In this document: in pieces, positions 1 through 62,230 of the stretch
Layout: the number at the start of each line of letters is the position of its first letter
Numbering within the stretch: the stretch's first letter is position 1
Assembly: GCF_963853765.1 (NCBI RefSeq)
Contig: NC_088857.1
Location: 1,240,001 to 1,304,000 of the forward strand
DNA length: 64,000 bases
Direction: 5' to 3'
Origin: Magallana gigas
Taxonomy: Eukaryota
Position numbers and translations under genes: made by a program
The notes under the pieces: generated by a model
Databases searched by the model: none
What the model was told of the DNA's origin: nothing
What the model saw: the letters and a program-made list of their open reading frames with translations, nothing else

Positions 1-151
1 ATATTTTATGTGATATCACATTATAAAGTTATAATGTAAGTTTCATCGTGGGCGACGGCTGCGGACATAGTTTTCTATTCAATTAAAAAACTTCTATGAC
101 GTCACCCATTGTATTTAGTCAACGTTTATTTTTACTATTCAACCAACAGTC

Positions 152-2894: not shown

Positions 2895-3417
2895 ATGCAG
2901 AATAGTCCTTCAGTAACGTATGCAATGGTGGTGAACAGCCCTCAGGAAAACAAATCTTGTTCGGAATCCGAACAATCACATTCGTATAATGCGTTTACCG
3001 CGGATTCAAAACAGAAATCGTCCACGTTAAACAACGTGTTTACGAACCAGGATCGTGCTTCAGAGGTTGATACTGATGTTGCTGCAAAGGATAATACTCC
3101 AAACTCCTTCAAAGGATATACTTTTGTCCGCAAAAAAGCATACACCCTCGAAACGTGTGGTCCTTGCCAATATCAAGGCACGTGATACCACTTTCGAAAA
3201 GGTTAAAGAAGATATCGTCAGCTGGTGCCACAATAAAAATGTCAATGTTTTTAGCATCTTCATTTTGGCAAATCGCTCTGCACGACGATACCCAACATTC
3301 GTTATCCGTGTAAATATTGACGAAAAAGATTATAACAAAACTCTAGAGCCTGATTTCTGGCCAGATACAATATCAGCCAGAGACTGGATTGTAAGAAATG
3401 AAACCACGAACAGATAA
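2895..3417 (+). pseudogene. LINE ORF1 remnant (frameshifted)
   Basis: C-terminal ...FVIRVNI...LEPDFWPDTISARDW resembles the conserved FWP-x-G/T-I-x-x-R-x-W tail of invertebrate CR1/L2 ORF1. Split over two frames. Confidence 0.65.
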
Positions 3418-3449
3418 AGGTTCCGTCGTCCTCATATTTATCAATTTTA

Positions 3450-6400: not shown

Positions 6401-6830
6401 TGAAATGTCAGTATATAGAAATATTCATTGTAAATTAAAGCCAATTCATTTATGGGCAATTTTTAAAGAAAACCCTGGTCTAAGAAAATATTTTAATCGA
6501 TTTATTGCATTATTGTCTATGAAAACGGTTCCCAAATTGTGTATTCATTGTAAAAGAATGGAAAACAATTTTAACATGCACATTATGCTCAATTGTTCAT
6601 TATTTATGAATGAGAGAGACAAACTTTTATAAGATTTATTAGATATTCTAGATGTATTTGAATATGTTTTTTTGATTTGCAAGATTCCGAAATCCAATAT
6701 TTGGCTCTATTAGGGTGCATTGCAAATACCAGTTTTGCCCAAATTACATTTGAAAAGTGGAAAAAATTATAATTTGTGTATCGAAATTCGTATTTTTATT
6801 GTGGGATCATTTTGTTATTGATTGTAGAAA
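3450..6830 (+). pseudogene. LINE ORF2 (AP endonuclease + reverse transcriptase) with several frameshifts and stops
   Basis: EN motifs TWNIHG, SEHW, GGVA, GDFD, LDYIF, SDHFPV. RT motifs NYRGITL, QFGFR, AFDRIW, GVGQGR, VYIDDL, LLADD. C-terminal C-x2-C...H...C. Fragments 3450-3737, 3734-4639, 4971-5288, 5340-6632. Confidence 0.9.
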
Positions 6831-17402: not shown

Positions 17403-17837
17403 CTACCTTATTTGACAGAGGACTTCGTATTCTTTGTTGGTTTGGTGCTCTTTCAGCCCATATCCCACGTAAGCTAATTTGTAGCGAGTGCTTACTTTAC
17501 CCGGAATCAGATCGTTAGCGTAATTGAACCGTGCAACATACAAATCTGTGTCCGTTTTAAATGCGTTGTCGGGGACTTTTCCGCCGGATGCTTTTCTCCA
17601 ATCCAAGAATCCCACGGCGTTGATCGGACATACAAGAACGTCATAATCTTTGAAGATAAATTCCTTACCATCGTAAGGGATGTAGGCGCCATCGTAATAT
17701 GGACTGCATTTTCCGGGGGTCCATGTGCCTTCCTTATTTGCCTGGGCAATGAACAGAGGATTTCCGTTTTCCTCGTACCCGGCACGGATCGCATTATCTG
17801 GAATTTTGCATCCAGAAGTTTTTACCCACTCAGCNNN
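17403..17837 (-). CDS. DM9-repeat (two DM9 domains) mannose-binding lectin-like protein, CGL1/DM9CP family, ~144 aa
   Basis: AEWVKTSG..IPDNAIRAGYE...LFIA...WTPGK...GAYIPY.GKE....YDVL and a second repeat VPDNAF...LYVAR...LIPGK...AYVGY..KE...EYEVL. Visible sequence ends at 17834; the ATG is inferred at 17835-17837 inside the gap. AATAAA on the minus strand at 17258-17263. Confidence 0.9.
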   Translation of the reverse strand, partial: XAEWVKTSGCKIPDNAIRAGYEENGNPLFIAQANKEGTWTPGKCSPYYDGAYIPYDGKEFIFKDYDVLVCPINAVGFLDWRKASGGKVPDNAFKTDTDLYVARFNYANDLIPGKVSTRYKLAYVGYGLKEHQTNKEYEVLCQIR

Positions 17838-17964
17838 NNNNNNNNNNNNNNNNNNNNNNNNNNNNNNNNNNNNNNNNNNNNNNNNNNNNNNNNNNNNNNN
17901 NNNNNNNNNNNNNNNNNNNNNNNNNNNNNNNNNNNNNNNNNNNNNNNNNNNNNNNNNNNNNNNN
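17835..17964. other. Assembly gap covering the DM9 start codon and splice acceptor
   Basis: Run of N immediately 5' of codon 2. Confidence 1.
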
Positions 17965-20900
17965 TGAATGGTTGAATAAATATTATAAATGAGTTCAAGT
18001 ATTATTGCTTCACCCATGCGATCCTAAATAAGGAACCTATTTATAATATGTTTACCAAATCAAATGATAAAAATATTGTAGTATTTTTATGTTTAAAACT
18101 TATCTTTCACTCTTGGAATCTGAGACTGATGGTCTTGCACGAATAAATTTAATATTTTCGAAGTCAAAAGAGATTACAAGGTTTAAATATATTATGGCTC
18201 CAATTCCGAGTTTTTATGAGTTAAATTCGTCATCAGAAATAATCTAACACCTATAAATAAAAACAAAGAGCCGACTGGAAAAATTCAGGTACAATGTTTA
18301 TGCTATTCAGAACAGAAGTCACGTCGCTCTCTACTTCCCGGTATAACGAAACAAAAAATTAAGATCATAAATTTTGTAAAGTAGTATAGATGAAAACAAG
18401 TGCATATATCGATAGATACTTGACCGTAGAAAATTTTGAAGAAAAAAAAAACGGAGGTTGCGTTAAATACAAAATTAAACATTTTATTAGATATTTTGCA
18501 TTCAAAAATTGTAATGATGAGATCATAAAATGTGTTTGGTATATCAATACTTTTTATTGAAGTACCAAGGACAATTCCTTTATAAATTTTCATTATGCAA
18601 TCAAAACTACTTTCGGAAATTTCAAAATATACTGTTTATTATTAATCTTGTAAATTGTCAATTTTATCTTTTCGTTAAGTATCAAGTGATTTTTTTTTTA
18701 GAATATTCCTCCTCTCTTTTAAAAGTTAATGAGTTAATGAATATAACGCATGTTTTACTATTATTGCATGCTCTTTAACACAGACTCTAAATTATTCCGC
18801 ACATTTTGAAGTTTTGGTAAAAGGAAAAACAATTATATGATTAATATTGCCTACCTCTCAAAGTAAAATCTCTTCAACTTAAATTGGTAGTTGCCCTTTC
18901 ATGAATTCTTAGAAGGAGTTTGAATCACAAAGGGTGCACTAGCATATATAGTGATTTTGGCACATGCCTCCTCCCTTTAAATTGTTCTAACCAATCAAAA
19001 TAGCGAAATAATGATAGCCTGTTATTTTTAAGTCGGGAATGACTTAACATATTATCATTTTTTTATCTGCAACTTGTTATGACTACAAATACGTTTTAAA
19101 GTAAATGTGATCCCTGTAATTTAAAAAACTCCTCAAAATATATATTTTTAACTGCTGTTTCAGAATCGACTTCTGACTAATGAAAAATATCTCGAAATAT
19201 ACATGTATATTTAAAAAAAACAAGTCAGTTTCATTGTTGACAAAACGAATTAACGAATTAAATGAATATGATTTTAAAACATGAAAAAGAAAACATTTAG
19301 AATATAACCCATATTATTGCAGGTATTAATATTACAAAAGTACAACTGCATTATGATATTCAATTTAAGCTCAAAGGTTAATGGAACGTGATGAATGATG
19401 ACTAATATAAATAATAGAAAGAAAAACCAACAAAGTGTTGTTCAAATATAAAACAAGAGCAGCAAATACAAGATACAAGAAACGGTATTTAGATCTCTTG
19501 AATACTAACAAATAAGGAATTCGAATCTATATGAACTAAACATGTTTCTTCTTCCAAACTGAAGAATGTTAAGTTGTTAAGGATTGAATTTGATGTTTCT
19601 CACAATCTGTAATCAGAAAGGTATGTATATCTATAGGGGTCTTGATTTATTGCATGATAACGTGTGTTTTTGTGATCGGCTTATTATTATTGAGCACGAT
19701 GATTGTTAATTACACGTATTATAGATAGCATAAAAATTATCACTTTAAAGAAAAGACTTAGTGTAAACTTCCAAATTAATTAGTGGTGCAAGATCTTTAC
19801 TTTGACAACATTGAATATACATAAGGATGATATTTTTGAGATAACATCGTGAAGAAAGAAAATATTTTGGAGTCATCATCCGTGGGCTCCTCTCTCTCTT
19901 TTTTTTAACAAACATGTTAATATTTTTATGCAATTAAAAAACTGAATATAGGAATGATATGAATAAAAAAAAAAAGTCAAAAAAAGAAGGAACAAATCAA
20001 GAGAACAATTGAAAATAGAAGACAATTTTAATTTATTTTGATAAATTAAGGACAACAAGAAATTAGGAGAAGCGTTTTGATATACCTGTATCAATTTTTT
20101 GAATATTTAGTCTTTTTTTCGTTGTATAAGAAACAAATTAAGCTCATATCTTTATTTTTACAAAATTTATTTTTATTCTTACTGAATGCTTATGAGTGAA
20201 CAAAACATCCTTGAAGTAAATCTAAGGTGTAATATCCCTCTGCTATTGATTTTACCATAGATCAAAAAAAAAATTCGTATTGATTTTCATCAACGCCAAT
20301 ATCAATAGATTCAAATAAAACAAAGATGAAGTGATGAAGCGCTGCTAGATTTCTCAAAAATTGATAATGTGTCTAATCATGATATGAAGAATATTAGGCT
20401 TAGTGATTAGAAAATGTAAAATTTTACCATCGCAGCATAAAATTAAAAATATTACCTCTTTATGAAAATAATATATATTTATACACATGGCCAATTCATA
20501 TTACAAAACATAATGAGGCGCTACTTTTAAGTTGAGAATAGCACTTTGTTGTATAGGTTTGTAACAAATATTGCTTCAATCAGCAAGAGTTATTGTGTTC
20601 TCATTTACCTCTGTGAACGAGCTATAAAGAGAGAAATAGAGATTTTCCACCCAAAGACAATATGGCCTAAAACATCAAACATGTACTGATCATGTACTGT
20701 ACTAGTACATACAATTCAGTTAAATTTTAACAAAAAATTTTGGGGGATATAGATATTGTCCCAAAAAGATTGATCAATATAATAACTTTCTTGTAATTTT
20801 TTGTAAAATTTAATTTTTATACTTTTTTGCATACCAAATGATAACCCATCTAGTCAAAAAGGATAAGGGTATTAAGAGAATAAAAATAAGAAAAAAACTA

Positions 20901-22053: not shown

Positions 22054-22690
22054 TCAGAGAAATAGAGCTACAGCCTCATGATAACTGTAAAAAGTGGAGA
22101 TTCTTGCTGTGTGTGCGTGGATCGGGTTTGAGATATAAACATGATCTAAGGTGGTTCCACCTTCTGTTGTGAAAAAATTTACTATCTGAGTGAACCCGTT
22201 GTTTTCCATAAAAGTTTGTATCGGTCCTTTCGTTTGTGTATCTTCGTTGAAATCTCCTAGGAAAATGCAAGTCTCGCCTTGTAATTTTACTGTGTCTACA
22301 AGAGATTTTAAAGATTGCAAAAACGTGGTTACGTTTAATGTAGGCGGTCGATACAAATTGACCAATACTATGTTTTTCCTCAAAAGCTTGACAACAATGC
22401 TTTCAATGTTTTTGATCGAATGATGAATAATGTGTTTTTTATCATCATTTTCTTTGAGATAGAAAGCAACTCCGCCTCCTTTTGAATTGTGCAACAGCCT
22501 TGTGTTCTCATCGTCATTGTTATATGCCTGTGTCCTTGTAAGATGGTGAAACTTAAAGCCATTTAGATTAAGCTGTGTGATTTCCTGGTCAGGTTTTAAC
22601 CATGTTTCTGTTAAACAAATCACGTCTGCCTTTGTAAATCGCATGTCGACCTTAAAGTGTTTAGGCTTTGAATGTTATGAAATACAACTA
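22054..22690 (-). CDS. Helentron C-terminal AP-type (EEP) endonuclease, separated from RepHel by a one-base frameshift
   Basis: HNIQSL ends the long ORF. The shifted frame then gives DVICLTETWL, GGGVAFY, NLYRPP, LGDFNED, TTLDHVY and YSYHEAV. Confidence 0.85.
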
Positions 22691-25600
22691 TTGTGCTATT
22701 GCTGTAGATATCAAAAGGTCCGTCAAGTGGTAGTTTTTGCATGTCTTCCATGGCTGGTTTGACATCTGGGTCAGCATACAACTTGTTTGTTAACTTTGTT
22801 CTGTCGGTTGTTTCGATGAATAATCCTTTTTTTGATGTTACTCTTGTTAATGCCACATAAGCTTGACCAGGAGCAAATGTTCTGTCAAGGTTGACAACAA
22901 CTTTTTCTACAGTCATACCTTGTACCTTGTGAGCTGTACAGGCCCATGAGAGTTTTAATGGAAACTGTTGTCTAACTATTGAGATCGAACTTCTGATAAC
23001 TATTTCTTCCTGGATTCTTTCAATCAAAACCAGATTTCCATTTTTTGTTCGTTTTCCAGTTTGTTTCCCTACATTTTCAGAGTCAAATACAACAGCTATA
23101 GCTTTGACATTTGTTTTGTCTGCATCTCCATGTTCAAAGTGCGAAATGTATCCCATAACTCCATTTACTAAGCCATCTTTGACATCGCAATTCCTGGTCA
23201 ACATGACACGAGCATTAACTGCAAACAGTAATGAACTTGATAAACTCTCATTCTTCGTTTGGCATGGTTTGTCTCTGAGGCAGAGTTTTCCTGTGGTTTT
23301 ATCTTTTCGATAATCTTTTGCATCAATCTGTTTTAAATCTTTGCATTTCTGTTTCAACATGTCCAAATTGTATGTGTTCACCTCATCATTTGTAGAGTAT
23401 ACATGAAGAACATCTGCGGGGCCTTCTCTGATGCATTCATTAACTGTGTTCATTGTTTCAGCTGCTAGAGGTTCTTCTAAAGTTCTTGTGCGCAGCAAAT
23501 TCAAAGCTGTTGCAAATGGGACATCATCGCGTTGACGCATAATTTCAGTCATTTCTACTTCGTGGAACAATTCTCGCCAGAAATCGATGGGATATGCTGC
23601 GTTATCTTTGTACAATCTCTCGTCTTTTCTTTGTTTTACAGGTGGAAGTTGAAAGAAATCACCAACAGCTATTACACTAACGCCTCCAAACGGGTCTTTG
23701 CATTTTTTAATTTGCACCAATCGTTCATGAATGTAGAATAAAAGCCTTTTGTACACCATCGATACCTCATCAATGACAAGAATCTGCAAGTCTGCAAGTT
23801 TCATTCTTATTTCACTCAAAGTTTGCTCCTTTAATGGTTCGTATGGCAGAGGCAAGAATTTTGTCAAAGAGAAAACGCTATGAATTGTATTGCCACCAAT
23901 GTTGAAAGCAGCTGTGCCAGTAAACGCTGTCAGCAAAACTGACAAAGCTTCAGGTGAAGACAAACTTCTAGAGAAAAGACGTGATGCCTCGAAATTGATA
24001 GCTTTTACAATTTGGCTTTTTCCAGTACCTGCACCTCCAGTAAGAAATATATGAAATGGAGCTGGGTTTTCATTTACAATTTTCCTTATACACCAGTCTC
24101 GCACATAGTAGAACACTTTTTGTTGGATTTCATTTAGATTCTGTACTATGTTCAACATTTCTACATTTGAGACGCTGATTTGTTGTACGTGATATAAGAC
24201 ATCAGCTTTTTTCATGTCATTTTCTATGTCTGGAATATTTTCGACAAATTCATCTGAGTTTTGCCGCTGAGACTTTATCATAACACATTCATCTCTATCA
24301 CGTTCTGTTTCGGGGCACAAATTTGCCCATGCATCTTCTGCTTCTCCTATGTTTTCATACATTTCCTGAGCTTCATCTATAACTTTTTCATTTTCAGCAT
24401 ATCGAGCATGATTTGATTCCACTATAACTTTGACCGGTTTTACACATCTTGTGTCTTGCAATTTTACAAAACCCTTATTATAAAATGCCTCGTACAAATC
24501 GAACGATTCTGGTTTCAATTGTGTTTCATTCTGGTACGGAAGGAAAAGCTGTAGTCGAGATTGATAAAATCTCTCTGGTGTTTTCTCTGCACTAAATCGA
24601 GGATACCTCACAACTGCTTGTTTTGTTCTTGTTCTCTTTTGAACAAATCCCTTGGAATTTTGAAGTTCGAAAACGTTTTCGTTGGTTCCCTTTGGAACTT
24701 GGGATTTAGCAAGTACGCGATATTCAGAACAGAACTCAGCTAGACACATGTTATTGAACGTAATGCTGTTTGGTCGGTTCTCATACCTTTCCACAATGTT
24801 TGTCATGAAAATTTCGTCATCGTCGTCTTCCCCTTCTAAATCATCTTCTGGTAACTGACGTTTCGGTTTCATTTGAGAAAGGGGCTTTGTCATGCGAGTA
24901 GGGTTTTCTCCAACTGGTATAAATATTACTTTTCTTGAAGCTTCTTTCATTCTCAAATTACAAACTCTGTACACAGCTTCTTGTGCGGTAACTTCCCTGT
25001 GTGTCATATATGCAGATCCTATTTTTTTCATTGTTTGTTTGGCATCAAGATTTCCTTCTTGGGCTTCAAATTTTGTTTGTTTCAATAACATCCCCATTTC
25101 TCTTTCAGATTTCGATATGTACGATACTATGTATACAATGCAACTAAAGGGATCTAAAACATATTGTATGTCCATATTTGCATTCCAACATTTAAGGAGA
25201 CATGGATTGTATTGGTTTGTCCACATTTCATTTGGGTGCCTTTTGAGAACAACTGTCAACTTTTTAGACAAAACATTCAGTGCATTTTCGTACATTTCTT
25301 GCGTCAGAGAAAGATCATCGAAAACTTCATCTGTTGTTTTAAATTCATAGGATTCACTTTGAATCTTATTCCACACACTCAATAACATTTCTTTTGCTTG
25401 AGACTTGGTGAGATACTGATTAGAATTCTGTTGGTGCAAATCTGGAGTTTCTGCAATCTCATCATTATCATCGTCGTCATCATGCACTTCTGTTATAAAA
25501 GTACGCTGTGATGGTGGCCTAGGGAAGTTAAATCTACATTCTGATCCATTTTTTCTGCACGACTTTGAGTGATTCTTACTGTGTTGTTGAACATCTAGTA

Positions 25601-39880: not shown

Positions 39881-40277
39881 TAGATTTATATCTAAGGATG
39901 ACGTTTACTCAGAATATAAAAAAGATCCACTGATGATAATGAAAAACCAACTATTGGGTGTTATAGACCTTACATGGTAGTGTTATTCTTCATTTTCAAA
40001 TAATTAGGTCAATGACCTACTTTTTGAGTTAATGGCCATTGAATATTTTTTGAAAATTTAAGAAAAATGCATAAAAATTTTACACTATGATTAAGATTTT
40101 CTTAATTGTGAAAATAATACAAATTGCTTAACTGTTTAACAAATGAAATACAGTATATGAATGGTAGTGACATTAAATGGATATGTAACATAAATGGTAA
40201 ATGAAAATGGGTGATGAGTACCGAGAGACACTCTGAAGTCGCTAACGCCCGATTCTTTGATTGTTCCGAGTATCTCA

Positions 40278-40367
40278 GATCACGTGATCAAAGGGTATAA
40301 ATACGAGATGCCGTGAGTCAGCAGTCAGTCGCAGTGTAGACGCTGAAGTGAATACTTCAAGGTAAGC
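40278..40367 (+). promoter_or_regulatory. LTR core promoter and splice donor
   Basis: GATCACGTGATC (E-box palindrome) 40278-40289; TATAAATA 40296-40303; TGAGTCA 40314-40320; Inr TCAGTC 40325-40330 (A is 31 nt after the TATA T); AAG|GTAAGC donor with GT at 40362. Confidence 0.7.
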
Positions 40368-40670
40368 TTATTGTTCGTAAGTCAATATTGCTCAGCGATT
40401 TGCAGAACAATAATACTGGCGTATAGAAGCAACTTGTCTTCGTGAGCGTTGCTTAGATTCAGCGAGTTGACATTTGTTATCAGTTACGAGGGTGCTTCGT
40501 GGGGTTGCTTTGAAGTGACCGACAGAAGCGACGGGTTGTTTGAAGCGACCGATATAAGCGACGGGTCGCTTGAAGTGACTGATAGAAGCGACGGGGTGTG
40601 TCGGAGCGACGCATAGAGTTCGGCTACGGCCCATATATTCAAGTATATATAATTAATTGAGTTTTGAATC

Positions 40671-40676
40671 AATAAA
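40671..40676 (+). terminator. LTR polyadenylation signal (functional copy expected at 47334-47339)
   Basis: AATAAA in both LTRs. Confidence 0.55.
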
Positions 40677-40806
40677 AGCTAGGCAAGCGATAAGGAAAAT
40701 TATTATATATCTTAAACAATTATCATAAAAATCAAACACCTCAGCAAGGTATCTGAGGGGACCCATTATAAATATTAGCGTGTTTAGGCAGACACGTTAC
40801 AAAATT

Positions 40807-40824
40807 TGGCGCCCAACGTGGGGC
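40807..40824 (+). promoter_or_regulatory. Primer-binding site complementary to tRNA-Lys(CUU) (Lys1,2)
   Basis: TGGCGCCCAACGTGGGGC, the 18-nt Lys1,2 PBS known from several retroviruses, 5 nt after the LTR. Confidence 0.9.
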
Positions 40825-40892
40825 CACGTTTGATTGTATGATTTTTGTCCATTAAAGTTTTTAAATAATAATCTCGTGTTTTTATTGTAAAA

Positions 40893-43800
40893 ATGGCATT
40901 GGAAAATATTACCGAGGAAATACAGAGAATTGAAGCGGAGCTTGAGGAGCTTAACAGGACGACGTTTGAACACTCGATGAAACTTAGAGAAGATATGAAA
41001 CAGCAGACCTCGACTCCAGCACATCAAACTGTTCGGAAAAGCGACTCTGGAATTATGTCTGAAGGTCCAACAGAAATCAGATTCAAAAGAAGAGAATATA
41101 ACCAAATGTATGACCCTGAATATCCAGAGGATCTCGATTTAACGGCATCGCCGAGGTTTCGTGAGAAGAATCGAATAGAAGTAAGGGAAAATGAACCGCG
41201 AATTACTGTCAGGCGACAACGACCGCTTGAAGCGCCCACAGAAAAAGATGAGGGAGGATATAAAAACCCCGATACTTCTTTTAAGAAGCCATCCAACTAT
41301 ATAAAGCCAGCGACATTTGATGGCAGCGCTTCGTGGCTAGATTACAAATCGCATTTTGAAGCGTGTGCAGCCTTGAATGGATGGACAGACAGGGAAAAAG
41401 GTCTCTACTTAGCAGTGTCCTTAAGAGGAAACGCCCAGGGAGTGTTAGGCAACCTTGCTGGCGAATTAGGTAGAAACTACAATGAACTCGTAAGGGCTTT
41501 AGAGGATCGCTTTGCACCTGCAAATCAAACAGAGCTATATAGAGTTCAATTGAGAGAACGTAGACAGAAAGCAACAGAGACGCTCCCAGAATTGGGCCAG
41601 ACAATAAGGAGATTGGCACATTTAGCTTATCCAACGGCACCGAATGACGTGAGGGAAACGCTCGCAAAGGAACAATTCATTGATGCTTTGGTGGATGCGG
41701 ATATGCGCCTTAGAATCAAACAGGCCAGACCACAGAGTCTAAACGATGCAATAAGGCTTGCAGTAGAGTTAGAGGCTTTCATAAAGTCAGATTTCGGGAG
41801 AATAGAACAGAAGTCACACTTGCGTGTGGCTAATGGTGACTCCTCCAGAAATGATGATGCCGACAACACCGATGAATTGACGAAGTGTCTAAAAGGCTTA
41901 CAAAGCTCTTTGAATGAGCTTAAGTCGGAAATACGAGAAATGAGAAAGCCTGATGATTCAAGGCGATCAGCCCAAAATGGCAGTAAGCAAAGACACTTGC
42001 CGAAAACAATAAAATGTTACAATTGCCATGAAGAAGGACACATAAGCAGACAATGTCCATCAAAGCAAAAGAATAGAAAACGTCCAGTAGAAAGCAACTA
42101 TGGTCCTAAAGCGCCACGTCCTGCATCAGTTAGTGCAGCAAAAACTAGACCAGAGGAAGAAGTTAAGCAACCTTCAGTGGCATTTAATAGACCGAGTGAG
42201 GCCGGAATGTATGCCGTTGTCTGCATAGGCGGAACTGAGATAAAAATGTTGGTAGATACAGGAGCAACTGTTACTTTGCTTTCGGAGAGAGCTTATAACA
42301 AAGTTCAACAATCAAATGGCACCTCTGCTATAGACAAAGTAAAGCAAGAGATTATGACCGCTGAAGGCAGATCTTTGAAGGTGTTAGGAAAGATCGTGGC
42401 CAATATTCAATTGGGTGATAGGGAATATCTTTCACAAATAGTAATATCAGACATTACTGTGGATGGAATCATTGGCTTAGATTTCATGACTGAACATAAA
42501 TGTTCGTTAGATATACCTAACAAGGTATTAAGCATCGGCGGAGAGAAACACTCGTTGTTGCTCGAAGGTACGCTAGGATGTTACAGAGTTGTTGCTTCAG
42601 AATCGTTCGTTGTTCCAGCTAGAAGTGAAATCGTCACAACTTGTGATGTGTGCGTGCCAGATGGGGTAAACCTTTGCAGTGGTTTGGGGATCGTAGAGCC
42701 AAAGGACTGTTTGATTACGACTAATAGAAGTCTGGTGGGGAGGACTTTAGTAAACAGTGAAACTAGAGTACCTGTTCGGTTTATGAATCTTTCACAAGAT
42801 CCTCAAACTATTTATAAAGGGACTAACATTGGACAACTTTGTCCAGTCGAAAAAGTGTTAGAGACTACAAAAGCGACCGACCACCAAATGACTTGGTCAA
42901 GGGAACTTGAAACTCTGAGTGAAGTCACGAAATACAGGTTGAATCAAGAGCAAAGAAAGTCAGTGGATAAGCTTATTGAGAACTATGCCTTTTTGTTTGC
43001 TAGTTCAGATAACGATCTCGGGAGAACAAACGTAGTCAAACATAAAATTGACACTGGAGATGCTCGTCCTATAAAGCAACCACCAAGGCGACTCCCAGTC
43101 CACATGAGGGAAGAGGCAGATAAATTAGTAGACGATATGCTACGGCGAAATGTCATAGAGCCGTCTTCGAGTCCCTGGGCCTCTGGGGTTGTTCTTGTCA
43201 AGAAGAAAGATGGTTCTACACGCTTCTGTGTAGATTACCGGCGTTTAAATTCGGCAACGTTAAAAGATGCGTACCCTTTGCCGCGCATCGATGACATGCT
43301 CGATAGCCTGAGCGGTGCGTCATGGTTTTTAACTCTCGATTTGTGCATGGGGTACTGGCAAGTAGAAATGGAGCCTGAGGATAAGCCGAAAACAGCCTTC
43401 GCGACAAGAAAAGGTTTATTTCAATTTCGGGTAATGCCGTTTGGTCTCTGCAATGCTGGAGCAACATTCGAGAGGCTTATGGAAACCGTACTTGCCGGGT
43501 TGAACTGGGAAATTTGTTTGATTTACTTAGATGATATTATTGTCATCAGCAAAACATTCGAAGAGATGGTAGAGAATCTTTCAAAAGTGTTTGGTCGGTT
43601 GGCTGGCGCTGGACTAAAATTGAAAGCGAAGAAGTGTTCTTTGTTCTCTAGGTCTGTAGAATATCTTGGGCATGTCATATCCGACAAAGGAATAACTACA
43701 GACAGCAAGAAAGTAGAGGTAATCAAAACAATGAAAGCACCAGCCAATGTCAGCGAACTTCGCTCATTCTTGGGCATATGCGGATATTACAGGAAGTTTG

Positions 43801-45899
43801 TTAAAAACTTTGCCGGTATTGCAAAACCCTTACACAAATTGACAGAGAAGAACAACACTGATTCTTTTACATGGAGTACAGATTGTCAAACTGCCTTCGA
43901 TCAATTGAAAACCGCCCTGATAAGCGCCCCAGTACTTGCACATCCCGACTTTAACAAGTCGTTTATATTGGACACCGACGCAAGTAATTTTGCAATGGGG
44001 GCTGTGTTATCACAGGTTCATGAAGGTAAAGAGAGGGTAATTGCTTATGCTAGCAAAGTTCTATCAAAGTCGGAAAGGCAATATTGTGTGACAAGGAAAG
44101 AACTCCTGGCTGTGGTGTATTTCACAAAGTATTTTAAGCATTACCTCTATGGGAGGAAATTCATTCTGCGGACAGATCATAGCTCATTAAGATGGTTGAC
44201 TACTTTCAAGAATCCCGAGGGTCAATTAGCTCGGTGGCTTGAAGTGTTGTCTACCTTCGATATGGAAATACAACACAGACCAGGAAAGCAACATCTGAAC
44301 GCAGACGCTTTAAGTCGTCTACCCTGTAGGCAATGCGGCTATGATATTGATGATGACAAAGAGCCGCATGTTCGAAGGGCAAAAGCAGATGGTAAAGATT
44401 TAGCTTTTGACGAACCTTACATAAAGACAATACAAGATAATGACAAAGAGCTTAAATTAGTCAAAGAATGGATGGGCAAGGAAAAGAAGCCAAAGTTTCG
44501 CGAGATCTCTAGTCAAAGCGTATTTTTACGCTCACTATGGTCACAGTTAGATATACTTACTATAGAGAACAATTTGGTTTGCAGACGAGTAAAAGACACG
44601 GACACAGGATTAGAGAATTTACAAGTTGTTGTACCTATGTCGGAAAGGAGGCGCATCTTGCTGGATTGTCATGACAAAAGAACAGCGGGTCACTTGGGGA
44701 TAAATAAAACGATAGCTAGGATACGAAGTAAGTTTTATTGGCCCGGCCTGAACAAGGATGTTCGAAAATACGTGAACGGTTGCGAGGTTTGTGGGAAAAG
44801 AAAACCTTCGTTCGCTGGACAGAGAGCGCCGATGCAGATTGTGCAGAGTGGGTTTCCAATGGATAGGTTAGCAACGGACATAATGGGTGAATTGCCCGTG
44901 ACAGATTCAGGGAATAAGTATATTCTCGTGGTATCCGATTATTTTACTCGTTGGACTGAATGTTTCGCTATGCCGAACATGGAGGCTAAAACAGTGGCCC
45001 AGATAATAGTGGAGGAGGTTATAGTAAGATTGGGGGTACCATACACTATCCATTCGGACCAAGGGCGTCAGTATGAGAGTGAACTGTTTAAGGAGGTATG
45101 CAACCTTTTGCAAGTAGAGAAAACTCATACTACACCTTACCATCCACAATCCGATGGTATGGTGGAACGGTTTAACAGAACACTGGAGGCCATGTTAAGT
45201 TCATGTGTAAACCAAAACCACACCGATTGGGACAAGCAGCTACCATACCTCATGATGGCGTACAGATCGGCGGAACACGATACTACTGGGTTCAGTCCAA
45301 ATTACCTTATGCTCGGTAGAGAAGCAACGACCCCGTTAGATCTCGTATACGAAATGGAAGTGCAACGAAAACCTATTCCACAAAATCGATGGGCGTGGTT
45401 GCTCCAAGAGAGACTGGAGCAAGCTCATCGCATCGTACGAGAAAACACAAAAGCAGAAATGTTGCGACAGAAGCGTTACCACGACAGAAAGTTAAAGTGG
45501 CAGATATTTTCCCCCGGAGATAAAGTTTACGTTTATTTTCCGCGAAGAAAATTAGGTACATCGCCGAAACTAACAAGCTTTTGGCAGGGCCCGTTTTTGG
45601 TCCTCGAAAAGTGCTCGGAATGCACGTACAAAGTTTCGTGTGGAAGCAAAGGTTCTCCTCAAGTGATACATGTAGATAGAATGAGGTTGGTTAAGTCTCA
45701 GATTTTGACTAATGAAGAGGAGGTCCCTAAGTTAGAGTCAAATTTCGATGAAAGAGAATCTGGTGATCAGATAGATGATGAAAATGATAACAAGTTGGGT
45801 TTAATTAATATTGAAGCTGAACAAGAGTTACCGCAAAGATCTGTTAGAAACAGACGCGCTCCTGCTTATTTGTCAGACTATGTGTTAGGTTTTGATTAA
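40893..45899 (+). CDS. gag-pol: Gypsy Gag-Pol polyprotein, 1668 aa, single frame
   Basis: Gag KPATFDG..W; CCHC knuckle CYNCHEEGHISRQC; protease LVDTGA; RT RFCVDYR, MPFGL, YLDD; RNase H LDTDAS, KELLA, TDHSSL, NADALSR; integrase H-H-C-C, ATDI, SDQG, VERFN; GPF motif. Confidence 0.97.
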   Translation: MALENITEEIQRIEAELEELNRTTFEHSMKLREDMKQQTSTPAHQTVRKSDSGIMSEGPTEIRFKRREYNQMYDPEYPEDLDLTASPRFREKNRIEVRENEPRITVRRQRPLEAPTEKDEGGYKNPDTSFKKPSNYIKPATFDGSASWLDYKSHFEACAALNGWTDREKGLYLAVSLRGNAQGVLGNLAGELGRNYNELVRALEDRFAPANQTELYRVQLRERRQKATETLPELGQTIRRLAHLAYPTAPNDVRETLAKEQFIDALVDADMRLRIKQARPQSLNDAIRLAVELEAFIKSDFGRIEQKSHLRVANGDSSRNDDADNTDELTKCLKGLQSSLNELKSEIREMRKPDDSRRSAQNGSKQRHLPKTIKCYNCHEEGHISRQCPSKQKNRKRPVESNYGPKAPRPASVSAAKTRPEEEVKQPSVAFNRPSEAGMYAVVCIGGTEIKMLVDTGATVTLLSERAYNKVQQSNGTSAIDKVKQEIMTAEGRSLKVLGKIVANIQLGDREYLSQIVISDITVDGIIGLDFMTEHKCSLDIPNKVLSIGGEKHSLLLEGTLGCYRVVASESFVVPARSEIVTTCDVCVPDGVNLCSGLGIVEPKDCLITTNRSLVGRTLVNSETRVPVRFMNLSQDPQTIYKGTNIGQLCPVEKVLETTKATDHQMTWSRELETLSEVTKYRLNQEQRKSVDKLIENYAFLFASSDNDLGRTNVVKHKIDTGDARPIKQPPRRLPVHMREEADKLVDDMLRRNVIEPSSSPWASGVVLVKKKDGSTRFCVDYRRLNSATLKDAYPLPRIDDMLDSLSGASWFLTLDLCMGYWQVEMEPEDKPKTAFATRKGLFQFRVMPFGLCNAGATFERLMETVLAGLNWEICLIYLDDIIVISKTFEEMVENLSKVFGRLAGAGLKLKAKKCSLFSRSVEYLGHVISDKGITTDSKKVEVIKTMKAPANVSELRSFLGICGYYRKFVKNFAGIAKPLHKLTEKNNTDSFTWSTDCQTAFDQLKTALISAPVLAHPDFNKSFILDTDASNFAMGAVLSQVHEGKERVIAYASKVLSKSERQYCVTRKELLAVVYFTKYFKHYLYGRKFILRTDHSSLRWLTTFKNPEGQLARWLEVLSTFDMEIQHRPGKQHLNADALSRLPCRQCGYDIDDDKEPHVRRAKADGKDLAFDEPYIKTIQDNDKELKLVKEWMGKEKKPKFREISSQSVFLRSLWSQLDILTIENNLVCRRVKDTDTGLENLQVVVPMSERRRILLDCHDKRTAGHLGINKTIARIRSKFYWPGLNKDVRKYVNGCEVCGKRKPSFAGQRAPMQIVQSGFPMDRLATDIMGELPVTDSGNKYILVVSDYFTRWTECFAMPNMEAKTVAQIIVEEVIVRLGVPYTIHSDQGRQYESELFKEVCNLLQVEKTHTTPYHPQSDGMVERFNRTLEAMLSSCVNQNHTDWDKQLPYLMMAYRSAEHDTTGFSPNYLMLGREATTPLDLVYEMEVQRKPIPQNRWAWLLQERLEQAHRIVRENTKAEMLRQKRYHDRKLKWQIFSPGDKVYVYFPRRKLGTSPKLTSFWQGPFLVLEKCSECTYKVSCGSKGSPQVIHVDRMRLVKSQILTNEEEVPKLESNFDERESGDQIDDENDNKLGLINIEAEQELPQRSVRNRRAPAYLSDYVLGFD

Positions 45900-45999
45900 T
45901 TTTGAATTGTTGTTTTATATGCCTGTGAGTTAAGAGTATTCATGTCTCGGACTAGTAAATATATTAAATTGGTTTTTGTATCCTTTCAGAACCAAACCC

Positions 46000-46665
46000 A
46001 TGGCTAATACCAAGTTAACTAAAGCGAAGCAACAGGAAGGATGTCCTTTCTGTGACAAGCCAGTAAACGAGCCTTGGCAAGATCATGTTATCTTATGCTC
46101 AGGCCAAAAACACAAATGTCTGACGTGTGGAGTTCGCTTTAAGAAGAACAGCTATCTTCTAAAACACATGAAGAGACACGCTCAACCAGCTACAGTAACG
46201 CCACCGGCGAAAAAGCAGAAGTTAAGTCCCTCTCAGTCTTTAGAGAAAGCCCCAGAAAGGATCGAACCCACACTCACTACACCAGGTTTAGAAGAGGATG
46301 ACAGCCCGAGTGAATGGGAAACGCAAGATCCTGGCAACCTGGAAGAAGTTCTATTGGGATCGTGTAGTGGGACAGATGAAGAGGAAGAGTCAATGGCAAA
46401 AGATGAAGACAATGATCTAGAAATCGGAAGAATAGTGAGGAAGAAAACTCAACCTGTCTTGTTCACTGGTCGCAGATCCGAAGAAACCAATCGAGATCAA
46501 AAAGTTCGTAACGAAAGTAGCAATCTGGGGCCATCTACAAGGGATGTAGCCGTGCAAACAGAACCAATTTTGTATGTACACTCCACGAAGAAAGTAACAA
46601 CCAAGTGGGAGAATGGAGTGAAAGTAAAGGTGATTGAGAAGAAAAAGAGCCTGAATAAGGTGTAG
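46000..46665 (+). CDS. Accessory 221-aa zinc-finger protein of the Gypsy element (C2HC + C2H2 fingers, NLS, acidic region)
   Basis: CPFC-x10-H-x3-C and canonical CLTCGVRFKKNSYLLKHMKRH; PPAKKQKL; D/E-rich middle. Acceptor TTTTTGTATCCTTTCAG ends at 45989 and is followed by CCCATGG. The ORF-track start at 45976 is a TTG inside the acceptor. Confidence 0.8.
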   Translation: MANTKLTKAKQQEGCPFCDKPVNEPWQDHVILCSGQKHKCLTCGVRFKKNSYLLKHMKRHAQPATVTPPAKKQKLSPSQSLEKAPERIEPTLTTPGLEEDDSPSEWETQDPGNLEEVLLGSCSGTDEEEESMAKDEDNDLEIGRIVRKKTQPVLFTGRRSEETNRDQKVRNESSNLGPSTRDVAVQTEPILYVHSTKKVTTKWENGVKVKVIEKKKSLNKV

Positions 46666-46827
46666 AGACAGTGGGTTTGTTGTACGAAAATGGTAGATAA
46701 CCATTTCTTGTTGTGGAAAACTTTTTGTTTAAATATATTGTTAAAGATAATCTACGATCATTGTAAATAAGAAAAATTGTATACACTGCTTGTTTGTTTT
46801 TATTCCTGGATTCAAGCGAGGACGCTT

Positions 46828-46846
46828 GAGACGGAGGCGTGGGTAA
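46828..46846 (+). promoter_or_regulatory. Polypurine tract
   Basis: GAGACGGAGGCGTGGGTAA immediately before the 3' LTR. Confidence 0.7.
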
Positions 46847-47464
46847 TGTAACATAAATGGTAAATGAAAATGGGTGATGAGTACCGAGAGACACTCTGAA
46901 GTCGCTAACGCCCGATTCTTTGATTGTTCCGAGTATCTCAGATCACGTGATCAAAGGGTATAAATACGAGATGCCGTGAGTCAGCAGTCAGTCGCAGTGT
47001 AGACGCTGAAGTGAATACTTCAAGGTAAGCTTATTGTTCGTAAGTCAATATTGCTCAGCGATTTGCAGAACAATAATACTGGCGTATAGAAGCAACTTGT
47101 CTTCGTGAGCGTTGCTTAGATTCAGCGAGTTGACATTTGTTATCAGTTACGAGGGTGCTTCGTGGGGTTGCTTTGAAGTGACCGACAGAAGCGACGGGTT
47201 GTTTGAAGCGACCGATATAAGCGACGGGTCGCTTGAAGTGACTGATAGAAGCGACGGGGTGTGTCGGAGCGACGCATAGAGTTCGGCTACGGCCCATATA
47301 TTCAAGTATATATAATTAATTGAGTTTTGAATCAATAAAAGCTAGGCAAGCGATAAGGAAAATTATTATATATCTTAAACAATTATCATAAAAATCAAAC
47401 ACCTCAGCAAGGTATCTGAGGGGACCCATTATAAATATTAGCGTGTTTAGGCAGACACGTTACA
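46847..47464 (+). repeat. 3' LTR
   Basis: 618-bp copy of the 5' LTR. Confidence 0.97.
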
Positions 47465-53400: not shown

Positions 53401-53559
53401 GTACATATTTAAACTGATGTATCAACATAAAAGTAAGAAAGATAGGAAACAAGGCACCATTAAATGTGGTTCCAACAAATGTTTAATGGAAGCCTGGGCC
53501 TTGATTATATATAAATAAGATTTTGTTGAATCATTAAGAGTTTTGGTTGTTAAAAACCC

Positions 53560-53785
53560 AGGAATCCCACAGCGTTGGTTGGATATACGAGAAAGTTTTG
53601 ACGATAATTCCCTTGCCACTATATGGAATGTAGGCTCTTTTGTGTTCTGGAATCAATTGTTTGGAGGTCCAAGGGCCTTCCTACTTTGCCCGGGCAATAA
53701 TTAGAGGATGTTCGCTTTCCTCGTAACTGACACGTATGGCATTATCCGGAATATTACTTCCAGATGTTGATACTCACATTGCCAC
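53560..53785 (-). pseudogene. DM9 lectin pseudogene (not in the ORF track)
   Basis: The reverse strand reads V(GTG)AM*VSTSGSNIPDNAIRVSYEESEHPLIIARAK*EGPWTSK, aligning to MAVWVSISGSHIPENAIRAGYEENGNPLFIARAKKEGTWTPGK. Homology continues to about GFL at 53560, then fades. Confidence 0.88.
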
Positions 53786-54599
53786 TCTATTTGTCTGTAA
53801 TAAATAATTATCGATTGTTATTATCCTTTCATTTGAAGCTTTAGAAAAAAACATTTTTTAAGGAGAGAAAAACATACAGTAAATCTTGTGTAAAAGTACA
53901 GTGTAACTAGAGAATGAAATTGTGCTTAATGGTTAGTCGTGTTGCTGACGGAATGCAAAAATGACTGTGTACCACATGACTGGAGGCATTTGACCACGCT
54001 TTATTTATTCAGCCTATTTTGTTGAATTCCTATTCTATTTTCTTTGTTGAATTTCTTTATGTTTTGTAATGTTTGCAAGTTTAGCCGGGGCTAATTTTTT
54101 CTGCCCTAGATTTTTGAATGAAATTTTTTACAAGAATTTCTAGTGATATAATAATTATTTTAAGATAAAAAAAAAGAAGACATTTAACACACCGTTTGTT
54201 TAAGGGGTCATCTCAAAGTTTGTTAATTTTTAACATAGGACCCTATGGGATTTTGCTTAAAATGTACCAAATTTGCACATTTTTTAAACTTCTGCCCTAG
54301 GGATTTCTTTTTTTGTTCTACATATTAAAGTTATTGCTAAAAGGTATCAAATTGTCAAATAAAAAAAACCTTTTACCTCCTGGTTTGTTCCAGGGGTCTT
54401 ATCAAAGTTATTTTTTGTACGCCCAATTTCCAAGTTTGTCAGATAATTGCTATTTTTTATTCGACAAAGACGGAAATGGTGATCTTTATTGTGTTATTAA
54501 AACATTACGACATATTTAAGTAATAAATCAATATATAACATCACATATTAAGGGTAATTAATATAAAATACATTGTTAATGTCTTGAAATAAATGAATG

Positions 54600-59774: not shown

Positions 59775-60206
59775 CTACTTGATTTGACAGAGGACTTCGT
59801 ATTCTTTTGTGGTGTGCTCTTTCAGCCCGTATCCAATGTAAGCAACCTTATAGCGAGTGCTAATTTTACCCGGAATCAGACCTCCGGCGTGATTAGCCCG
59901 TCCCACGTACAGATCTTTGTCTGTTTTGAAGGCGTTGTCGGGGACGTTTCCGCCAGATGCTTGCTTCCAATCTAAGAATCCCAGGGCGTTAATCGGATAT
60001 ACGAGAACCTCGTAATCTTTAATGATGAATTCCTTGCCGTTGTAAGGGATATAAGCTCCTTCAAGGTGAGATCCGCATTTTCCGGGGGTCCATGTGCCTT
60101 CCTTCTTTGCCCGGGCAATAAACAGAGGATTTCCGTTCTCCTCGTATCCGGCACGTATGGCATTTTCCGGAATATGACTTCCGGATATTGATACCCACAC
60201 TGCCAT
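59775..60206 (-). CDS. DM9-repeat lectin, CGL1/DM9CP-like, 143 aa, intact single coding exon
   Basis: Two DM9 repeats; PGKCGSHLEGA and EVLVYPINALGFLDW.QAS.G.VP closely resemble oyster CGL1. AATAAA on the minus strand at 59701-59706. The 3' UTR is homologous to that of the 17.4-kb copy. Confidence 0.95.
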   Translation of the reverse strand: MAVWVSISGSHIPENAIRAGYEENGNPLFIARAKKEGTWTPGKCGSHLEGAYIPYNGKEFIIKDYEVLVYPINALGFLDWKQASGGNVPDNAFKTDKDLYVGRANHAGGLIPGKISTRYKVAYIGYGLKEHTTKEYEVLCQIK

Positions 60207-62230
60207 TCTTTTTCTCTGTAATATATAATTAACATTAAAATTCGCACTGTTGTAACTATCTTTGCATTGTAGTTGTAGAAATAAATGTATTCAAGGCAAA
60301 GTAAACATCAAATAAATTTTGTGTTAAGGTAACCAGATTTTCTACAAACCTTCTTCCTAATAAATACTTACGAGAGAATGAAATTATGCTTAATGATTAT
60401 TCATGTTGATGACTGAATGCGAGATTGTCTGTGTACCACCTGACTTGGGATATTTAACCCCGCTTAATTTCGTTGTATTCCATCGTATTTTCTTTTTTAA
60501 TTTTGTTATGTTTTTTAATATATGCAAGGTTCGTTTGAATGGAGTGTTGTTGGCTTATTTCTTCATTTTTTGGGATCATATATCTCTTATTTTCTTTCAG
60601 CTAAATAACTCGCAAAATAAGCAAGCGCAACGTTTTTTGATGATCTTATTGTAAACCATTGTAATAAAAAGAACGTCCAAAAACGATATATCACATAGCG
60701 CCTTTTACCGATACTTCGCATACGCTCGTGTACAAAAAAATAGATTTGGGTTATTTATTCATTCAGAAATTGTATCATAATTTCAGGGAACCTACATAGA
60801 GAAATGAATGGAGAGAAGTCTATATAAAGTTAGTTGATATTCTGAACCGCGATTACTTCTAGCAAAATGCAATGAATTTAAGTGAAGACAGAATGTAGTG
60901 TTATTGGAGAGATGTTTTTGTATTTATGCGATCATACTCAGAATTATACAATAGGATTTGATATTTTAAAAAACATCAAAGCAGCAGATAAGATAAAATT
61001 ATCATGAACTTTCTATTCTTATAATGTTCTGAGTGAAAAGAAAAAATATATTAACTACTTGGGAAAATCGATCCAGCTATCGGAAAATCAAAATACCTAG
61101 GCGTTACCACTAGGCCACGCATGCATCACATTATTAGGATTAACTTTCAATAAATGTGGCTATATACGTGAATGTTTTAGAAAAGTCATTAATTGGAAGA
61201 TTTATATTATTACAATGTTACGACCGCCCAAAATTAATTCTAGGTTAACGTCACTTCAAAATACCAAACCTTTGCCGTAGGGAAATAAAACTAAAACAAA
61301 CAAAATTTTCAAACAATTGATTTCTTTTCATTTGCATTTAAACAAATACATTGCGTATTCAAGCTACATACAGACTACCTCAGTCTTTAATAGTTAACTT
61401 TCTTATTTAATCCTATTGAGTATCTGAGTTATAGTCCATAATGTGCTCTAAACATTTGAATTTCTACAGATTACAGTATTTCAGTACAATTAAAGTTGAA
61501 ACGATCAAATTAAAATGGTGGTTTGTTTGAGTTTTTTACACCAAATTTCTCCGCCTGAAGGTTACGTTAAAAACAGAATTAAATTTGGCCTTAACCAAAG
61601 GCAATTCAATGAAAATATGTACTACAATACTCGTAGAACATAATTTTAATTGTATTTCTTTGGCTTAAAGTGGATCCAAATACTCAAATATCTTACTCTT
61701 TTCATTACATACTATTTTCCTATATATATATTTTTTTATCAAAACGAACATTTTATTACTCTTGTGTGAAACAACTATGACTCCTTTAACCTAATAATTG
61801 TGTAATTTTATCTTTCTTTAAATAAATCAAATTAAATATTGTATAAAATTGAAATTGTCTCATGTTTGCAAGAGCGCTATAATGTTGGCGAAATCGTACA
61901 TAAAGTTCGCTATACCTCTCTCTGGATTGATTTAATTTTTATCAAAACAGATTTAAACATAGTTTCTTTTATCCCCACTCCCATATTTTTAAATTCATTT
62001 TATTTTAAAACTACCTATGCATCTAAATAATCACTGAAATAGCTTACCTGTAGTTTATAAATCGGAGAAACAAATGAAAGATACCTTACTGCTTCCACAA
62101 ACCAAACAAATATCAACTACAAAGTTATCTGAATGTGGAATGTCATTTTGGTCACCTGACAATTGCAATTGATCATTGGTCCGAGCACTTAAATTTCGTT
62201 CAAATTTATTACAATTGTGAATGTTTATTA

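Follow-up and report, generated by a model that had tools for sequence, protein, structure and literature searches.

We describe ORF3, an accessory gene in the env position of a bivalve gypsy retrotransposon clade. There is hardly any doubt that ORF3 is borne by these elements, is under selection and is largely co-inherited with pol. As to what it does, we give an even chance to the reading that its product is an LC8-dimerised, DNA-binding factor that acts in trans to activate its own elements or to protect them from silencing.

Anatomy of the element

Positions 40184-47464 of the window, the whole 64,000-nucleotide stretch of oyster DNA analysed here, hold a complete, young LTR retrotransposon whose LTRs, target duplication, primer-binding site (PBS) as well as polypurine tract (PPT) could all be located. 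Its features are as follows.

40184..40801 (+): 5' LTR, TG...CA, 618 nt, identical to the 3' LTR
40280..40287 (no strand): E-box-like palindrome directly upstream of the TATA box; its 7-mer recurs in the U3 of other families
40296..40301 (+): TATA box, predicted promoter
40325..40361 (+): predicted non-coding first exon, 37 nt, without ATG; start placed from an initiator-like motif
40362..40367 (+): predicted splice donor, GT at 40362; top of 43 GTs in the LTR
40807..40824 (+): PBS
40893..45899 (+): gag-pol in one frame, 1668 aa
45965..45989 (+): T-rich tract and predicted splice acceptor, AG ending at 45989; top of 510 AGs in the element
46000..46665 (+): ORF3, accessory protein, 221 aa, ATG at 46000, between integrase and PPT
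46811..46830 (+): short hairpin with purine loop, upstream of the PPT; present in ORF3-less families too
46833..46843 (+): PPT
46847..47464 (+): 3' LTR, 618 nt, with a polyadenylation-type hexamer at 47334

A 4-bp target duplication, GATA, lies outside the LTR pair. The gag-pol frame follows the gypsy order of capsid-like gag, CCHC knuckle, protease, RT, RNase H and integrase, and among solved structures the RT is nearest to that of Ty3 (E 1e-49, against E 2e-17 for foamy virus RT). LTRs, target duplication, PBS, PPT, domain order and the Ty3-like RT all fit Ty3/gypsy (Metaviridae), to which the element belongs. Its PBS, which we take to be of the tRNA-Lys type, differs from that of most sister families, a primer switch inside the clade.

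The original prediction had placed a 221-aa same-strand ORF between the pol stop and the PPT, and the coordinates 46000-46665 are confirmed; the gap from the pol stop to the ORF3 start is 100 nt. The start had been given as CCCATGG; the ATG at 46000 stands, but a C rather than a purine occupies position -3.

Homologues, selection and co-inheritance

A search of the same genome with ORF3 returned 45 matches (112 candidates scored), ranging in identity from 100% to about 28%. Among the best matches, 30 have loci, and 29 of these sit directly behind an integrase; among those 30 loci, L027 is the second piece of the copy in L008, and L023 is without integrase. We took 140 stretches, 40 via an ORF3 match and 100 via an integrase match, and since the integrase search scored 137 of 1724 candidates the resulting family sample is a biased lower bound. 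With the window included, 139 of 141 stretches have an integrase match, and at least 84 of the 139 have an ORF3 match behind it, always in sense and never in antisense orientation. Clustering at 90% integrase identity gives 38 families, at least 20 of them with ORF3, which bears out the earlier claim of an element-borne accessory gene in the env position. Twenty-four families are at least 53% identical to the window integrase; ORF3 is present in 19; of the five ORF3-less ones, two are young and multi-copy, and three are represented by a single decayed copy each. Every family has few copies in this sample (1-16 stretches). Both LTRs are present in 64 ORF3-bearing copies; where their gag-pol is intact, so is ORF3 in 22 of 26, and where gag-pol is broken, ORF3 is still intact in 20 of 38. 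Far from being broken in most sister copies, ORF3 is intact in most of the young ones.

Named homologues, drawn from 20 protein clusters examined, come from four oyster genera (Magallana, Crassostrea, Saccostrea and Ostrea), the pearl oyster Pinctada and the scallops Mizuhopecten and Argopecten; in a profile search of representatives, host proteins with many fingers crowded the results. Homologues measure 205-270 aa, and the Magallana records, at 98% protein length, share a 90% cluster with ORF3. A contig from a metagenome collection (L173) carries pol, acceptor, ORF3, hairpin, PPT and an LTR with TATA-like box and donor. One homologue is filed in a bacterial symbiont bin and is probably host DNA; a prokaryote genome scan with P0218 gave no match.

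Within families, 30 copies compared with their reference copy (2 skipped) give a pN/pS of 0.33 (98 synonymous and 119 non-synonymous distinct changes, p 2e-15), well away from the value near 1 that would have spoken against a selected gene. Between families (12 pairs), synonymous sites are saturated (pS 0.75-0.92), with pN at 0.27-0.49 for ORF3 and 0.10-0.22 for integrase. ORF3 and pol trees of 19 families have 8 of 16 splits in common, against a mean of 0.24 and a maximum of 3 in 2000 random trials. The common splits are mostly shallow, patristic rho is just 0.30 and deep branches agree poorly; ORF3 thus travels with the element at least at shallow and middle depth.

Could ORF3 be a captured host zinc-finger gene, or a chance ORF without a function for the element? 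The databases do annotate homologues as host genes, under the names 'uncharacterized', 'RE1-silencing transcription factor-like' and 'HIVEP3-like'. However, the top matches of ORF3 are other element copies, 29 of the 30 best lying behind an integrase, the gene is under purifying selection and shares splits with the pol tree, and the annotated 'genes' are often near-identical multi-copy sets. Loci, selection and co-inheritance refute this reading, whose probability is next to nil. Conversely, the bivalve genes so named in these clusters are likely to be retrotransposon ORFs, a misannotation that affects bivalve expression studies and zinc-finger gene counts.

Splice signals and expression

Splice sites were scored with simple matrices made for this analysis. 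As had been predicted, the window element has a strong acceptor before ORF3 (rank 1 of 510 AGs) and a strong donor in the LTR just after the TATA box (rank 1 of 43 GTs). Both signals recur in comparison. When all 431-553 AGs of an element are ranked, the one lying 0-17 nt before the ORF3 start comes first in 14 of 19 families and within the top 6 in all 19; no more than two non-coding AGs (3' UTR and LTR) score as high. Because the spacers are T-rich, the 80 nt before each ORF3 start were shuffled as a control, and the acceptor beats the shuffled spacers at p<0.05 in 16 of 19 families. The best LTR donor falls at TATA+40..130 in 13 of 18 families where 2.84 are expected, an interval prompted by the previously noted site and by inspection of the same data. 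In the remaining five the donor ranks 2-3 in three and 7 in one, and one has no clear TATA box; L034, whose TATA box was misplaced by the first-match rule, counts as a donor miss. Predicted first exons are enriched in purine-rich words, which are typical of splicing enhancers.

Four of 24 listed RNA runs were sampled, two consisting of raw polyA reads, of which about 1 in 100 was used, and two being contig sets. On the element landed 58 and 80 raw reads, mostly in the LTR, with an ORF3 depth below 1 in both raw-read runs, and the window element looks nearly silent in the sampled RNA. Two RNA contigs span the acceptor unspliced. The expected junction of 40361 to 45990 does not occur among these four runs, whose very low depth lets them speak neither for nor against splicing and in which the sole joint is that of PPT into LTR. 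Of the earlier proposal of spliced expression, the donor and acceptor signals are supported by comparison; on those signals, ORF3 is likely to be made from a spliced, LTR-driven mRNA. Since the PBS lies inside the predicted intron, such a spliced RNA could not be reverse-transcribed by the element.

The ORF3 protein

Motifs were counted in 55 homologues with a mean column identity of 21%. The parts that stay constant are an N-terminal K-x-T stretch, fingers 1 and 2, W-DPG, RKxTxP, the TQT-type motif and a C-terminal strand pair. In the window protein the features lie as follows.

46042..46098 (+): finger 1, C2HC, C15 C18 H29 C33
46117..46179 (+): finger 2, C2H2, C40 C43 H56 H60
46201..46224 (+): SV40-like basic stretch, not conserved across families
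46315..46335 (+): acidic tract, W106 and DPG motif; 48/55 homologues, 0.2 expected
46438..46455 (+): RKxTxP motif; 49/55 homologues, 0.4 expected
46543..46563 (+): LC8/DYNLL-type motif around Q186; 53/55 homologues, 9.3 expected
46573..46656 (+): C-terminal beta-hairpin, residues 192-219, predicted by AlphaFold2

The two fingers were rightly read as C2HC and C2H2 (C-x2-C-x10-H-x3-C and C-x2-C-x12-H-x3-H). In the helix of finger 2, K/R stands at -1 in 52 of 55 homologues, N/Y/D at +3 in 51 and R/K at +6 in 54; these are the classical C2H2 base-contact positions. Finger 2 fits the spacing and contact residues of a classical DNA-binding C2H2 finger, with a Pfam zf-C2H2 score of 20.3 bits, under the cut-off of 25.2. 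A TGEKP-type linker is absent, the fingers being joined by 6 residues, or about 10 in some families. The SV40-like nuclear localisation signal, PPAKKQKL, is present in the window protein, but with the pattern in just 9 of 55 homologues (3.4 expected) we rejected it as a family feature. A leucine-rich export signal (NES) was likewise rejected, its loose pattern occurring in 14 of 55, under the 23.4 expected.

That ORF3 is not an Env protein holds throughout. The window protein has no hydrophobic segment (top 19-residue hydropathy 0.33), this measure exceeds 1.5 in just 2 of 55 homologues, and no env family is found among the 25 Pfam families listed for homologues. The acidic W-DPG tract appears activation-domain-like, and RKxTxP presumably resembles a basophilic-kinase and 14-3-3 site.

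AlphaFold2 models two fingers and the hairpin at 192-219, with the remainder unstructured (mean pLDDT 68, pTM 0.24). Fold searches gave no match at E<=0.001 or Z>=5 and barely covered the C-terminal hairpin. The weak matches are mostly DNA-bound C2H2 pairs, and the top row is the ubiquitin-binding finger pair TAX1BP1 UBZ1+2 (Z 3.9, rmsd 7.5, 62 aligned), within the noise range. In the Atlas the fingers matched generic C2H2 clusters only, and residues 95-221 had no match.

The LC8-type motif lies in a region without secondary structure in the model. It has D at -4 in 30 of 55 homologues, while 53 have Q at 0, 49 have T at +1 and 46 have D/E at +2, and it matches the LC8 anchor preferences, including D at -4 and D/E at +2, given in the available sections of PMC6607443, which also record that many TQT peptides fail to bind LC8. 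One such motif is present in 41 of 55 homologues and two in 9 of 55. An LC8 gene is present in the same genome, and LC8 dimerises disordered clients (PMC12017986, available sections).

Loss and fusion of ORF3

In one family, 11 copies have the same ORF3-deletion junction, beside 5 ORF3-bearing siblings; 10 of the 11 have the same further loss, the gag-pol of 4 exceeds 1600 aa, and in 2 the LTRs are identical. A common ORF3 deletion also unites 3 copies of a second family. These derivatives replicated after losing ORF3, so the gene is not needed in cis; it is either supplied in trans or an optional booster. Two sister multi-copy families, of 5 and 7 stretches, are without any ORF3 and have young copies, which makes ORF3 dispensable for some lineages. 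One of them, the L097 group, has neither a good donor near the TATA box nor a post-pol acceptor. In the other (L095/L096/L100), the rank-1 acceptor lies about 155 nt past the pol stop and is followed by no ORF, and one of the two copies that were scored retains a strong donor.

Of the 4 L134-family copies, 3 have ORF3 running on in the pol frame as a fusion to the end of integrase. The fused protein (L134, L136, L139) keeps the fingers, R-x-x-T-x-P and several QT-like motifs. The splice signals are gone: donors in the LTR reach no more than 0.1, and within 150 nt no acceptor does better than 1.1. Retention of the protein motifs without the splice sites fits a job unrelated to splicing.

Candidate targets in the LTR

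No LTR motif is common to all families. The top U3 word is the E-box 7-mer, found in 7 of 17 family U3 regions where 0.1 are expected, and the E-box-like palindrome is likely to be a host factor site. Many LTRs, including that of the window element at 40500-40610, carry family-specific short repeats downstream of the donor, one word being common to L049 and L136. Tandem repeats reach p<=0.05 in 6 of the 12 ORF3-bearing LTRs listed and are strongest in the ORF3-less L096; as candidate ORF3 response elements they are not specific. The pre-PPT hairpin was rejected as the ORF3 target, for it occurs in ORF3-less and distant families too. The hairpin (46811-46830 and its equivalents) has a 4-9 bp stem and a G-rich loop of 3-4 nt, 14-23 nt before the 3' LTR. 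A simple scan found it in 16 of 19 ORF3 families and 7 of 9 others, and its stems vary between families yet stay paired. It is likely to be a general plus-strand priming or packaging element.

A model for ORF3 function

We propose that a single LTR promoter would yield an unspliced gag-pol RNA and a spliced RNA in which the short ATG-free exon is joined to the acceptor 0-17 nt before the ORF3 start. This two-RNA scheme, for which the conserved signals argue, we consider very probable. Host LC8 would then bind the TQT-type motif and pair two ORF3 chains. The motif itself is observed and the predicted binding is probable, a shade less so than the splicing. By pairing two chains, LC8 would make two weak two-finger units act as four fingers, and the beta-hairpin would assist binding by the paired fingers. 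Activity or location would be under the control of phosphorylation at the RKxTxP threonine, a switch which, judged from the motif, may or may not operate with equal likelihood. Finally, the dimer would attach to element DNA and, by way of its acidic W-DPG segment, bring in a host factor, and this recruitment would raise transcription or counter silencing; overall, the chances for this last step are evenly poised. Such a product could be shared with sister copies, and this would let ORF-less derivatives spread.

What else might ORF3 do for its element? The predicted intron has strong ends and takes in everything from the PBS through gag-pol, which means that full-length RNA has to evade splicing. 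The Cer1 element solves the same need through CERV, a phosphorylated multimer made from a spliced mRNA (PMC10309623, available sections). This precedent makes RNA export a serious rival: ORF3 protein would bind unspliced genomic RNA and promote its export or shield it from splicing, as a feedback switch between spliced and full-length forms. C2H2 fingers are able to bind RNA, and the ORF3-less L097 group is without both splice signals. However, the integrase-fused L134 family keeps the protein motifs in the absence of splice signals, the other ORF3-less family keeps its acceptor and, in one of two copies scored, its donor, the loose NES pattern is less frequent than expected, and the architecture of ORF3 is unlike that of CERV; a role in RNA export thus seems unlikely to us. 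We are more doubtful about a cofactor role in the particle or in integration, in which ORF3 would ride the pre-integration complex, its fingers and LC8 tethering cDNA to chromatin or aiding nuclear entry like a detached chromodomain. The in-frame fusion in 3 of 4 L134-family copies is consistent with this, and chromoviruses carry a chromodomain at the same position (PMC12440569, available sections). Yet ORF3 is a separate ORF in 19 of 20 ORF3 families, where no signal for targeting to particles is evident; ORF3-bearing and ORF3-less copies alike show assorted target duplications, for the most part AT-rich 4-mers; and LC8 is now viewed as a dimerisation hub more than as a cargo adaptor (PMC12017986, available sections).

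The motif evidence that suggests an activator would equally suit a self-repressor, a dimer that binds the LTR and damps transcription to control copy number. All sampled families are low-copy, and ASCIZ, whose activity is tuned by LC8 according to the accessible literature, offers a precedent. Long purifying selection, however, is probably easier to explain by a gain for the element's own replication, and the ORF3-less families are no more numerous here, at 5 and 7 stretches; self-repression strikes us as improbable. Still more improbable is a host-directed decoy that disturbs the silencing or ubiquitin pathway through LC8, 14-3-3 or ubiquitin contacts and dispenses with nucleic acid. The Drosophila PICTS silencing complex cannot do without LC8 (PMC7861614, available sections). 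The top structural row is a ubiquitin-binding finger pair, and 4 of 55 homologues weakly match the autophagy-receptor finger family PF18112. Against a decoy, that structural score is within noise, finger 2 has basic residues at its base-contact positions, and LC8 is presumably too abundant for easy titration. An LC8-dimerised activator or anti-silencing factor is the reading that we find most economical. About 20 natural ORF3 variants coexist in one genome, together with deletion lineages and an integrase fusion, and this makes tests of cognate against non-cognate LTRs straightforward.

Other env-slot ORFs and other features of the window

ORFs of other types occupy the same slot in other gypsy elements of the sample. 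More distant families (L144, L146, L157 and L138) have a different ORF of 151-316 aa behind integrase, with an acidic N-terminus followed by two zinc fingers and with acceptor ranks of 23, 3, 1 and 2, respectively. A third type, of up to 462 aa, is found in L147, L156, L159, L150, L153 and L149. Its fingers are N-terminal and its middle is rich in Ser and Pro, while a conserved C-terminal block that matches no Pfam family is accompanied by QT motifs at the end; the acceptor ranks 1-2 in the two scored. In a single copy, the gypsy integrase is followed by a 313-aa ORF, L154:1907-2845 (-), in which a BTB/POZ domain is recognised (PF02214, E 8e-16).

Elsewhere in the window lie a Helitron at 22054-30008 (-), whose 2462-aa ORF has herpes-tegument-like, OTU protease, Rep and PIF1 helicase domains and is followed by an AP-endonuclease in a different frame, and a broken non-LTR retrotransposon with an RT domain at 3031-6632 (+). 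Three related segments, at 17403-18023, about 53500-54000 and 59775-60290 (-), of which at least one encodes DM9 repeats (PF11901, E 5e-37), are likely to represent a small lectin-like gene family.

Relation to known systems

Spliced or nuclear gypsy accessory proteins are already known from the accessible literature (CERV, sORF1/2), as are accessory genes in the Tat and fungal chromovirus clades. A description of ORF3 itself was not found in a literature search that included mollusc and annelid transposable element surveys and that excluded Repbase, GyDB, subscription journals and supplements. In the available text of one mollusc survey (PMC6238403) the words 'zinc' and 'ORF' are absent, and in another (PMC10294476) so are 'zinc finger' and 'C2H2'. 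Repbase contains many C. gigas gypsy families and may annotate ORF3 (PMC10886601, available sections).

How does ORF3 compare with the accessory proteins of other retroelements? Like errantivirus and retrovirus env genes, it takes the slot between integrase and PPT and would be expressed by splicing from an LTR donor to a 3' acceptor (PMC12440569 and PMC2774666, available sections); unlike them, it encodes no signal peptide, transmembrane segment or env domain. CERV, a 517-aa protein that exports the genomic RNA of the C. elegans gypsy element Cer1, is likewise an accessory protein of a gypsy element with single-frame gag-pol, and its spliced mRNA, dependence on phosphorylation, predicted multimer and cysteine cluster can be likened to features of ORF3; it differs in its five exons overlapping gag, C4-type loop, M ring and G-like domain (PMC10309623, available sections). 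ORF3 lies wholly 3' of pol and combines C2HC and C2H2 fingers with an LC8-type motif, an architecture that sets it apart from CERV. The sORF1 protein of the Drosophila MDG1 group, which is nuclear, can be likened to ORF3 as an accessory protein of an env-less gypsy element with a predicted DNA-binding fold and low dN/dS, but it is encoded upstream of gag, is unspliced, measures about 110 aa and is helix-turn-helix-like (PMC11952523, available sections). ASCIZ/ATMIN shares with ORF3 N-terminal zinc fingers, a disordered tail and a TQT-type LC8 motif (PMC6607443 and PMC12017986, available sections). In contrast, it is a host transcription factor with many LC8 motifs, and as far as the accessible accounts go its homology to ORF3 is seen at the fingers alone.

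Two systems serve as models for the proposed activity. Tas/Bel1 of foamy viruses is a small acidic transactivator encoded just before the 3' LTR. ORF3 is also small and acidic, also precedes the 3' LTR and is proposed to be a DNA-directed activator; the foamy virus PBS, moreover, is of the tRNA-Lys type, like that of the window family, whereas most sister families have another PBS. Tas, on the other hand, falls outside the C2H2 proteins and makes use of an internal promoter, and the window element has a Ty3-like RT and no env. We rejected the idea that the element is itself a foamy virus, because its RT is far from that of foamy virus (E 2e-17) and env is absent. VANC proteins of Arabidopsis VANDAL elements are element-encoded, act in trans on their own family and provide the model for the anti-silencing reading, but they belong to plant DNA transposons with family-specific tandem target motifs, and the oyster LTR repeats are not tied to ORF3 (PMC6719617, available sections). 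Taking these parallels together, we tentatively suggest, as a view that is rather less likely to be right than the activity itself, that this widespread bivalve gypsy clade consists of 'complex' retroelements with their own LC8-dimerised, phospho-switched zinc-finger factor, an animal counterpart of Tas and VANC that would activate or unsilence LTRs in trans, be exploited by ORF-less cheaters and represent one of several independent env-slot accessory genes in oyster gypsy lineages.
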